Position numbers: made by a program. A DNA stretch of 13,586 nt from a virus (lineage: Duplodnaviria; Heunggongvirae; Uroviricota; Caudoviricetes), in the IMG/VR virus record IMGVR_UViG_2897352509_000015; one strand, given 5' to 3'. The stretch's first letter is position 1. Every line of letters starts with the position of its first letter. Of this stretch, positions 9,001-12,000 are shown piece after piece.

Positions 9001-12000
9001 CCGGGAACCAATAACGGCATCAATAATTGTAAAACATGAAGAATGCATTTATGACGATACCAGAGGAAACTTCGTTATAAAGGGTAATTGAAATGAACAT
9101 TACCCTTTATTTTATTTAATGAAACATCCTGCAAACTGATATGAATTACTGAATGAGGTTTTTATGCCTGTTACCACCTTAAGTATCCCAAGTATATCTC
9201 AATTATCTCCTGCAGGAGTACAGTCTTTGCAGGATGCTGCCAGACTTGAAAGTGGAATAAGAATATCCATTGGTAGTGGCCAATATTCTGTTCACTATGT
9301 CCAACTACTGGATGGATTTTCAGTTGAACCGGTGAGAGGAGGCTTACTGGATAGGCTATTGGGGCGTGAGCATCGAATGGATAGAAGGGCTGTGGCTCTG
9401 GAAAGGCAATTAAATGGAGGTGTCGATTTTTTAAGTAGTGTTAATAACTATTTTCAGAGTGTCATGGCAGAACACAGAGAAAATAAAACAGGTAATAAAA
9501 TATTAATGGAAAAAATAAATTCTTGTGTATTTGGAACGGATTCTAATCACTTTTCTTGCCCGGAGTCATTTTTGACATGCCCGATAACGCTGGACAAACC
9601 TGAGAATGGAGTGTTCATGAGAAACTCACAAGGTGCTGAGATATGCTCTCTATATGATAAGGACGCGTTAGTGCAACTTGTTGAAACTGGTGGAGCTCAT
9701 CCTCTGAGTCGAGAACCTATAACAGAATCAATGATTATGAGAAAAGACGAATGTCACTTTGATACAAAAAGAGAAGCTTTTTGTTGTAAGTGATAATTAA
9801 TGATATAAATATAGTTTTATGTGCTTTTGTTTTTTACTAAAGCAAAATTAAGTTATTAAAATGGAGGGAGAGGAATGCCTGTAGATTTAACGCCTTATAT
9901 TTTATCTGGGGTTAGTTTTTTGTCTGACATTCCTCAAGAAACCCTGTCTGAGATACGTAATCAGACTATTCGTGGAGAAGCTCAAATAAGACTGGGTGAG
10001 TTGATGGTGTCAATACGACCTATGCAGGTAAATGGATATTTTATGGGAAGTCTTAACCAGGATGGTTTATCGAATGATAATATCCAGATTGGCCTTCAAT
10101 ATATAGAACATATTGAACGTACACTTAATCATGGTAGTTTGACAAGCCGTGAAGTTACAGTACTGCGTGAAATTGAGATGCTCGAAAATATGGATTTGCT
10201 TTCTAACTACCAGTTAGAGGAGTTGTTAGATAAAATTGAAGTATGTGCATTTAATGTGGAGCATGCACAATTGCAAGTGCCAGAGAGCTTACGAACATGC
10301 CCTGTTACATTATGCGAACCAGAAGATGGGGTATTTATGAGGAATTCAATGAATTCAAATGTTTGTATGTTGTATGATAAAATGGCATTAATACATCTTG
10401 TTAAAACAAGGGCGGCTCATCCTTTGAGCAGGGAGTCAATCGCAGTTTCAATGATTGTAGGAAGAGATAATTGTGCTTTTGACCTTGACAGAGGTAACTT
10501 CGTTTTAAAAAATTAAGATAGCAATGGCGGGTTAACTTTTCGTAAAATGAAATTAATTCTCGGTACGACATGTAAAACGCGGCACCTCGTATGCAAGAAC
10601 GTACTGCGGTTGGCTGGTGAACTTTCGATAGTGCTAGTATTGAATGATTTCCAGCCGTTACCGATTTACGTGTTTATTAGTGAACAAACCACTCGTCAGA
10701 AGATTCCCAGGTATCTTTCAGAGTCTCCTGAACAAATGTTTTTGCAGAATCCTTATCTGCAGTGCGTGTAACAGAAAGCCCATCATTGCTGGTGGCTTTT
10801 ACGATCACTTCTACATCGTCATAACGCTTACTGATGCGCCGAGTTAATTCTTCCTTTAACGCATCCACAGCACCGTTTGGCATTTTAGTCATTTTCTCTT
10901 TGGCTATGCAGATTTCAATACGCATAAAAATCCCTCTATACTGTGTTTGTATACAGTGTTATTTTTATCTGTATAAATAAACAGTGTCAAGAGGTCTTGT
11001 TTCTGCTCTTTTGGAGTTCTTCAAAACGATTATGTAAAGATTTCGGATACAGTTCGGTATATACCTGCCATAGCACGTTTAATGAACGATGCCCTGTAAC
11101 TTGAGCGACTTCCTCAATACTAAAACCAGCCTCAAATAAGCGACTTGCCCCTTCTCTACGCAAATCATGATATCGCAGATCTTTAATACCTAATTTGCTT
11201 CTTACCCTCTGAAATCCTGCGGTAACAGAAGTGCTGTTATATGGAAAAATGAATTCTGATTTTTTTGGTTGTCGCTGGACGATATCCCAGGCTTCCCCAA
11301 GCAAGGCAACTTTCATATGGTTACCTTCCTTTTTACGTGGATCTTTCCTATCTCTTACTAGTATAGATTTTTGTTCTTGGTCGAGATCTTCCCATCGTAA
11401 CCGGCATACTTCTCCGATTCGCATACAGGACCACACAGAAAATTTGAGGATATCAACGAACGGAATTTTTGAGCATTTATGAGTAGATCGTTGTTGAAGG
11501 CCTTCAATGAGCATGTCAAGTTCATCAGATGCTGGTCTACGATTACGACGGTTTGATTTACCAATCAAACCGAGTTTAAGTAGATATGGACGAGCGCTTT
11601 TCGCCGGGTTTGATGTGTAATTGATTCCGTATACAGGTTTTGCCGCATCCAGAACACTGCCAAGATAACTAACATCGTGGCTGACTGTTGCTGGGCCTGC
11701 ACCAGCGTTGTTTCTTAGCCTGCAATGTTCAATTACGTCATTTTCTGTCAGTTCAGATAGTTTGATCGCGGATATGTCACTATCCATAAGCAGTTCCAGC
11801 ACATATCTTTTAGTACGGCCTGCTTTACCTCCGGCATTTGGGTCATTTAAATATTTGTGTAGTAAGTCACGGACTGTAAGTCCGTCAACTGCATTTGATG
11901 ATGGAATGCCATATAGATCTAATTCCATCACTTTCTGTGTGCCCCATGTTTTGGCATGAGCATGTTTAGGGAATGTTTTGCTTTCCCTGTAAGTGATAAC

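Follow-up and report, generated by a model that had tools for sequence, protein, structure and literature searches.

Two LexA-type boxes lie between int and a dinI-like gene

The window analyzed here is the whole of a 13,586-nucleotide (nt) stretch of viral DNA (Caudoviricetes; IMG/VR virus record IMGVR_UViG_2897352509_000015). It carries an integrase gene (int) and a dinI-like gene, both on the minus strand and separated by a gap of 61 nt, and this gap is the main subject of our analysis. A LexA site is a 16-bp imperfect palindrome, CTGT-N8-ACAG, inside a 20-bp site resembling TACTGTATATATATACAGTA. Two boxes of this form stand before dinI, with the near edges of their 20-mers at -14 (box 1) and -42 (box 2), counted from the A of the start codon of dinI (10925). 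Box 2 directly adjoins the stop codon of int (TGA at 10989-10987). The initial annotation had placed two CTGT-N8-ACAG boxes 14 and 42 nt before dinI, the second touching the int stop, and the sequence reads as it claimed. The features of the region are listed in Table 1.

Table 1. Features of the int-dinI region in the window
Feature	Coordinates	Strand	Remarks
int, tyrosine integrase of the dusA-associated type, 365 amino acids (aa)	10987-12084	-	Pfam PF00589; adjoins dusA
-35 hexamer TTGACA	10985-10990	-	From promoter scan; contains the int stop TGA; upstream edge of the mobile cassette
LexA box 2, 20-mer atCTGTataaataaACAGtg	10967-10986; core 10969-10984	+ as read	Exact CTGT-N8-ACAG; fills the promoter spacer, -35 to -10
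-10 region TAAAAAT	10961-10967	-	Reads as TAAAAA (17-nt spacer) or AAAAAT (18-nt spacer)
LexA box 1, 20-mer tACTGTgtttgtatACAGtg	10939-10958; core 10941-10956	+ as read	Exact CTGT-N8-ACAG; covers the predicted transcription start
Shine-Dalgarno sequence AGAGGGA	10931-10937	-	Ends 5 nt before the dinI ATG; GAGG core ends 7 nt before it
dinI-like gene, 82 aa	10677-10925	-	DinI-family paralogue; A of ATG at 10925
Conserved 3' untranslated region (3' UTR)	10574-10676	-	Stem-loop, terminator-type hairpin and U-run; downstream cassette edge
3' UTR stem GGCUGG/CCAGCC	10656-10651 / 10617-10612	-	Encloses a 33-nt conserved loop
Terminator-type hairpin and U-run	~10609-10578; U's 10577-10574	-	U's follow the hairpin in most variants

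Read along the dinI strand, the gap and its borders have the layout cTC-TTGACA-CTGTTTATTTATACAG-A-TAAAAAT-AACA-CTGTATACAAACACAG-TAT-AGAGGGA-TTTTT-ATG. A scan for consensus promoters returned TTGACA (10990-10985), a spacer of 18 nt and AAAAAT (10966-10961), which together match the consensus at 10 of 12 positions. Box 1 begins 3 nt past the -10 region, over the expected transcription start (about 10953-10955). The boxes overlap the core promoter or the start of transcription, the start being a predicted one. Such an arrangement is classical for an SOS promoter.

The gene behind this promoter belongs to the DinI family, as the initial annotation had stated. Its 82-aa product matches Pfam PF06183 over the entire profile (positions 1-63 of 63; E=1.6e-18; 67.2 bits against a cutoff of 24.2) and PHROG 189, "RecA filament binding protein DinI" (E=9.5e-31), where it aligns to positions 71-149 of the 151-position profile, the DinI-like half. 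Over residues 1-81 it can be aligned from one end to the other with E. coli DinI (PDB 1GHH). The acidic C-terminal helix of DinI (ETWES-D-WF) has been implicated in RecA binding, and the corresponding ETWES-D-WFV segment is kept in the window protein (l++twes+d+wfv in the 1GHH alignment). Because the protein scores 70.2 bits against the NCBIfam DinI equivalog NF007893, under its cutoff of 111, it is best classed as a DinI-like paralogue and not as an orthologue of host DinI. From its family membership, its presumed target is RecA filaments, as for host DinI.

Both boxes score within the range of K-12 LexA sites

Exact matches to CTGT-N8-ACAG are rare in DNA of this composition. The two boxes are the only matches on either strand of the 13,586 bp; in 200 dinucleotide-preserving shuffles of the window the mean was 0.08 matches, and none of the 200 reached two. 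To grade the sites we used a Berg-von Hippel heterology-index (HI) matrix built from 18 E. coli K-12 LexA boxes (PMC3009722 Table 4). On the scale of this matrix, box 1 has an HI of 3.9 (6.6 with a symmetrised matrix) and is the best site of the window, and box 2 has an HI of 5.9 (7.3 symmetrised). The 18 training boxes themselves score 0.6-12.8 when each is left out in turn, so that both window boxes fall inside the range of K-12 sites. Scoring with a LexA matrix was the check that the initial annotation had proposed for both sites, and they come out as the top two of the window.

The mean over the window is an HI of 36, and apart from the next-best site, at 8.9 (10.7 symmetrised), all others lie above 15. 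An exact background calculation gives 0.001-0.002 sites this good per window by chance (P ~1e-7 per position). Box 2 shares its entire 16-bp core with the tisB/istR-2 LexA box listed in PMC3009722. Neither upstream of int nor within it was a LexA-like site found, the best candidate in 11000-12300 having an HI of 16.

The next-best site, TACTGGATGGATTTTCAGTT at 9306-9325, keeps CTG-N10-CAG intact and lies inside the second nleG open reading frame (ORF; 9164-9793). About 0.04 sites of its score are expected per window, and it may be there by chance.

The arms of both boxes are conserved

Conservation was computed on 49 distinct close variants of the region, since distant homologues distort an alignment of all sequences. 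In these variants 15 of the 16 CTGT/ACAG arm positions are invariant, including all eight of box 1. In box 2 the ACAG arm is invariant, and the CTGT arm reads CTGG (T to G) in 6 of the 49; the K-12 ruvA and cho boxes have the same CTGG arm (PMC3009722 Table 4). The N8 centers, the flanks of the boxes and the Shine-Dalgarno region are variable. The promoter elements behave like the arms: the -10 TAAAAAT is invariant in 48-49 of the 49 variants, and four of the six -35 positions are invariant, with TTGA essentially so. The positions of the boxes, -33 and -61/-62 relative to the ATG, are kept in all variants.

The promoter, boxes, gene and terminator form a mobile cassette

We compared loci from a phage collection, 4 loci in four bacterial genomes and 80 IMG/VR contig loci found by a scan with the DinI-like protein. 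The homology shared among them spans ~10991 to ~10574 of the window, its downstream edge falling ~100 nt past the dinI stop. The promoter, both boxes, the dinI gene, the conserved 3' UTR and the terminator are one cassette of ~417 bp (~10574-10990), of a kind that many E. coli prophages have.

The 32 distinct upstream sequences in lambdoid and Stx phages fall into at least five unrelated left-hand contexts: the 3' end of int, a T-run context (CCCCGTTTTTTT...) and three more. Each meets the common sequence precisely at the -35 hexamer. In mEp460 the cassette stands behind int; in CP-1639 and in Stx2 phages (Stx2_EH2201) it is the last gene before attR; and in phage 2H10 it faces a divergent integrase. 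In these contexts the cassette therefore always lies near attP, and it is not bound to one integrase. The promoter and two-box unit, with identical spacing, occurs without int in at least four other contexts.

The cassette has its own promoter and its own terminator, and its surroundings vary among related phages. With this architecture it may be described as an autonomous mobile "moron" at the attP-proximal end of lambdoid prophages. Because the two-box unit occurs without int and the homology ends exactly at the -35 hexamer, the adjacency of int and dinI is most simply read as a recombination junction of a mobile cassette, and not as a designed coupling of the two genes.

LexA-controlled dinI genes are known from other phages and from hosts

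That a prophage dinI can be SOS-inducible and LexA-controlled is already documented, by experiment in Gifsy-1/2/3 and by annotation in phi80. In the Gifsy prophages of Lemire, Figueroa-Bossi and Bossi (2011, PMC3121763), a LexA box lies beside a dinI homologue whose product accumulates after mitomycin C, and replacing the segment with the LexA box abolished damage-dependent regulation. There, dinI is the first gene of an operon that also includes a small antirepressor and irsA, and deletion of dinI had no detectable effect on induction (PMC3121763). In the Salmonella SOS regulon, all three Gifsy dinI genes are listed with a single box that stands 19 nt before the ATG (HI 3.9-5.3), and nalidixic acid induces them 4.6-23-fold (PMC8072944). 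The window resembles these prophages in having a DinI-family gene whose promoter, immediately in front of it, overlaps a near-consensus LexA box, and the Gifsy-2 box (TACTGTGTTTATATACAGTG, HI 4.4) is one base away from box 1. The Gifsy genes differ in that they have a single box, a terminator in front, a position downstream of replication genes and the operon with antirepressor and irsA, whereas the window cassette has two boxes, lies beside attP/int, is monocistronic with its own terminator and has no antirepressor.

Phage phi80 is a lambdoid coliphage with a DinI-family gene, dinL, between the tail fibers and attP-int. At dinL, TTGACA is followed directly by CACTGTATAAATAAACAGTA (HI 3.5), which the phage's record (GenBank JX871397) annotates as a "predicted LexA binding site". 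Within the phi80 -35/box sequence, TTGACACTGTATAAATAAACAGTA, the box core is the reverse complement of that of box 2 in the window. Unlike the window, phi80 has a single box and a more distant protein, and pinL and attP lie between dinL and int.

The chromosomal dinI genes of E. coli, Salmonella and Klebsiella are likewise SOS genes with a LexA box over the promoter or start, and the protein aligns with the window protein over its full length. Salmonella dinI is listed with two boxes, at 19 and 42 nt (PMC8072944). Klebsiella dinI is bound by LexA in chromatin immunoprecipitation, and a small RNA (sRNA), DinR, is cut from its 3' end (PMC10907235). They differ from the window cassette in that the E. 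coli copy is listed with one box (ACCTGTATAAATAACCAGTA), that the window protein is a paralogue and that the 3' UTRs are unrelated.

More distant parallels are found in other phages. Phage 186 Tum and the split tum of PSP3 and Fels-2 are LexA-controlled units with a DinI-like moiety to which an antirepressor is fused or adjacent; the window cassette has no antirepressor moiety. Klebsiella phage P18-100 has a LexA box (HI 5.2) in front of a dinI homologue. In Yersinia phage YeP2, whose dusA-type integrase is a related one, a strong LexA box (AACTGTATTTATATCCAGTA, HI 3.0) precedes a 91-aa ORF, with dinI following 10 nt later, which is the "antirepressor then DinI" order of PSP3 and Fels-2.

The cassette probably carries an SOS-inducible dinI

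The boxes score as LexA operators, overlap the dinI promoter and are conserved, and the Gifsy prophages provide a precedent. On these grounds we consider it probable, at roughly 85%, that the boxes are tandem LexA operators that repress the cassette's own promoter and that this copy of dinI is SOS-inducible. In an undamaged cell, LexA dimers would occupy box 2, in the spacer between -35 and -10, and box 1, at the start site. Bound LexA would thereby keep RNA polymerase off a promoter that, with its perfect TTGACA, would otherwise be strong. Upon DNA damage, RecA* would cause LexA to cleave itself, and the promoter would fire. The predicted transcript, of about 0.37 kb, is monocistronic and would comprise dinI and the structured 3' UTR, ending at the terminator of the cassette. 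Its DinI-like product would then bind RecA filaments, presumably in the manner of host DinI.

Several observations weigh against this reading or limit its support. (i) The HI values of 3.9 and 5.9 come from a rebuilt matrix and not from the original Lewis 1994 matrix, and as absolute values they are not comparable with published HI thresholds. (ii) The -10 region is imperfect, and the transcription start is a predicted one. (iii) With 28 bp from center to center (~2.7 helical turns), the spacing of the boxes does not obviously favor cooperative LexA binding. (iv) The variants are closely related, mostly at >90% identity, and their conservation is weaker evidence than the raw counts imply; because of this relatedness, the footprint-like pattern is supportive of LexA operators and not decisive. 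(v) In phage JLK-2012, a diverged lineage, both boxes have decayed (CACTGGTTATCTATACAACT and ACTTGTACATAACCACAGTT; HI 10.2 and 16.2) while TTGACA and TAAAAAT are kept. This shows that the operator is dispensable in some phages, and the JLK-2012 cassette is presumably a constitutive, LexA-independent variant. (vi) The terminator hairpin of the window has an internal A.C mismatch and is followed by just four U's. (vii) A literature search found no evidence of LexA binding or SOS induction for the two-box E. coli dinI cassette of O157 or lambdoid phages, and the GenBank record of mEp460 annotates the promoter without the operators.

If confirmed, the cassette would be one more prophage-borne member of the SOS regulon in E. 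coli O157:H7. Every copy that still has its promoter end would contribute two LexA sites and a further modulator of RecA filaments, which could slightly shape the timing of the SOS response and therefore the induction of Stx phages. The point is an incremental one, since LexA-controlled prophage dinI genes are already established. For annotation, its value lies in showing the unit to be a discrete one, with the int stop codon inside its promoter.

The 3' end of the cassette is conserved and has a chromosomal relative

The 3' UTR is the other strongly conserved part of the cassette. RNAalifold, applied to 13 variants, retains both of its helices, with 4 covarying pairs in the terminal hairpin. 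Rfam gave no match in the window at gathering thresholds, and around the cassette and in its K-12 relative (below) it returned sub-threshold noise alone (CssrB at 20-22 bits against a threshold of 76).

A match to the 3' half of the cassette, at 84.5% identity, is present in 5185 of 5426 E. coli genomes, most matches covering query positions 3-161, and a genome may have related cassettes at as many as 8 places. In a K-12 derivative the match falls within the ecpE-ykgJ spacer, where it lies downstream of the ecp operon and shares the operon's orientation; its counterpart in the window is 10576-10830. This spacer contains a frameshifted dinI-like pseudogene in which residues 34-55 and 65-82 lie in different frames (E=5e-5). 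Its identity to the cassette is 92% in the 3' UTR core and 78-80% in the decayed coding part.

The same spacer has been described from another angle. A preprint by Nakamura et al. (bioRxiv 10.1101/2020.11.04.367953) reports a 96-bp sequence, "att-in-PP_2", in Stx and effector prophages, which serves as a prophage-in-prophage attachment site. It is homologous to the ykgJ/ecpE spacer over up to 309 bp at 84% identity, and its acquisition by phages from the chromosome is inferred there; the accessible text makes no mention of dinI (bioRxiv 10.1101/2020.11.04.367953). Our comparison suggests that att-in-PP_2 may fall within the 3' region of the dinI cassette and that the copy in the chromosome may represent a fossil cassette.

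The strong conservation of the 3' UTR could reflect function as an att site, function as an RNA (compare DinR), or both. In the more far-reaching version of this idea, the ~100-nt 3' UTR (10676-10574) would itself be a functional element, either as an SOS-induced, 3' UTR-derived sRNA like Klebsiella DinR or as the att-in-PP_2 target for other prophages. The ecpE-ykgJ spacer would then be a fossil dinI cassette, its ORF decayed to 73-80% identity, and this would reverse the published chromosome-to-phage direction. We think this version unlikely. A search of the literature found no sRNA from the dinI cassette of O157 or lambdoid phages. EcsR2 sits in the neighboring yagU-ykgJ spacer and is a different element.

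On the opposite strand, RefSeq annotates a fragment of a "capsid protein" pseudogene at 10547-10666 (+), antisense to the dinI 3' UTR and the end of its ORF. This annotation looks spurious because the 74-aa ORF there (10547-10771) has no Pfam match.

Control of int by the boxes finds no support

Three other explanations of two LexA-type boxes at this position were weighed. In the first, LexA at the boxes would act mainly as a roadblock to read-through from int into dinI, or would affect the 3' end or stability of the int mRNA, and would couple site-specific recombination to the SOS response, as the initial annotation suggested. The genes are on the same strand, 61 nt apart, and we found no terminator-like structure in the gap; int-to-dinI read-through is therefore physically possible. 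Moreover, the int stop lies inside the -35 hexamer of the dinI promoter, and the arrangement is ~96% identical in the functional phage mEp460 and its relatives. Nothing, however, requires such read-through, and the roadblock effect is hypothetical. The boxes are accounted for by the cassette's own promoter, since elsewhere, in at least four contexts, the unit is found with the same spacing but no int. They also lie downstream of int and so cannot repress its initiation, and no LexA-like site stands at the int promoter or inside int that would do so in their place.

We therefore regard a roadblock as quite improbable. A variant in which SOS-dependent read-through gives the int mRNA a protective 3' end solely after LexA cleavage is less likely than the reading of the 3' UTR as a functional element. 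Of the proposed tie between this locus and the DNA-damage response, the SOS-inducible dinI stands as a strong inference from the scores, the promoter overlap, the conservation and the Gifsy precedent. The gating of read-through finds no support, as the boxes lie past the int stop and the promoter fires away from int. The extension to the recombination module is likewise unsupported, int having no LexA-like site (best HI 16) and the cassette occurring without int. The adjacency of int and dinI should not be taken as SOS control of integration or excision.

In the second, the palindromes are not LexA sites at all and are either chance AT-rich repeats or sites for a phage repressor or for Int/Xis/IHF of the arm type, a thought that the AT-rich region adjoining an integrase gene invites. 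This is very improbable. Only ~0.002 such sites are expected per window, and yet two lie within 48 bp, one of them with the core of the tisB/istR-2 box. The positions that never vary coincide exactly with the CTGT/ACAG arms contacted by LexA. As for attP, it is on the other side of int, >1.1 kb off, and again the two-box unit occurs without int.

The third, a LexA-controlled switch of prophage induction of the Gifsy type, has in its favor the LexA box before a prophage dinI homologue as in Gifsy-1/2/3 (PMC3121763), the single base that separates box 1 from the Gifsy-2 box and a 56-codon ORF downstream of dinI (10401-10571, minus strand), but it is most improbable. A covarying terminator hairpin closes the cassette ~100 nt past the dinI stop. 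The 56-aa ORF falls beyond the conserved unit, runs into the 3' end of nleG and matches nothing in Pfam or PHROG. The next gene in intact mEp460 is a convergent tail-fiber gene, and the site lies beside attP/int and not downstream of replication genes. On the same grounds of position and missing Pfam/PHROG matches, we rejected this ORF as a Gifsy-like antirepressor, and the cassette has neither an antirepressor gene nor irsA behind dinI. The preferred reading thus remains that of tandem LexA operators on the promoter of the dinI cassette itself.

The window is an mEp460-like prophage remnant at dusA

The window is 98.7% identical over its full length to E. coli O157:H7 EC4115 (region 5.18-5.19 Mb), with 100% identity across positions 10300-12200. 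In the RefSeq annotation the region is a degraded prophage flanked by a 105-bp 5' fragment of dusA and an intact dusA. Its genes run from PrtN, an exonuclease and other early-gene remnants to the tail tip, lom, a tail fiber, three NleG effectors, a "DinI-like family protein" and the tyrosine integrase adjoining dusA. A 117-nt direct repeat of the dusA 5' end (83% identical; 1315-1431 and 12170-12286) marks the ends of the element, attL and attR. Elements with a dusA-associated integrase (DAI) have a tyrosine integrase beside the dusA 5' end and a duplicated dusA 5' segment at the far end (Farrugia 2015, PMC4482086). The window element has both features, with int divergent from dusA (12173-13210) and the duplicated 117-nt segment, and belongs with the DAI elements.

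The functional coliphage mEp460 and the element are collinear; the order in mEp460 is tail fiber, dinI (minus), int (minus), attP and early-left genes, and the int region of the element is 96% identical to the integrase region of that phage. A large internal deletion has fused a DUF2303 remnant to the tail-tip gene, and three nleG genes are placed between the tail fiber and the dinI cassette. From this collinearity we take the element to be what remains of an mEp460-like prophage integrated at dusA, which has undergone a large internal deletion and carries nleG morons.

The promoter scan found no consensus sigma-70 promoter for int. Upstream of int, the int-dusA intergenic region contains two direct GGTTCCC repeats and an inverted GGGAACC at 12095-12135 (aGGTTCCCgcacaGGTTCCCacgttttatGGGAACC), which may be arm-type sites for the integrase or binding sites for a regulator. 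Finally, the tail-fiber gene has a 21-nt repeat in three copies at 7304-7447 (AGGCGGCAGAAAGTGCAGCCG-like), probably an ordinary repeat of tail-fiber sequence.

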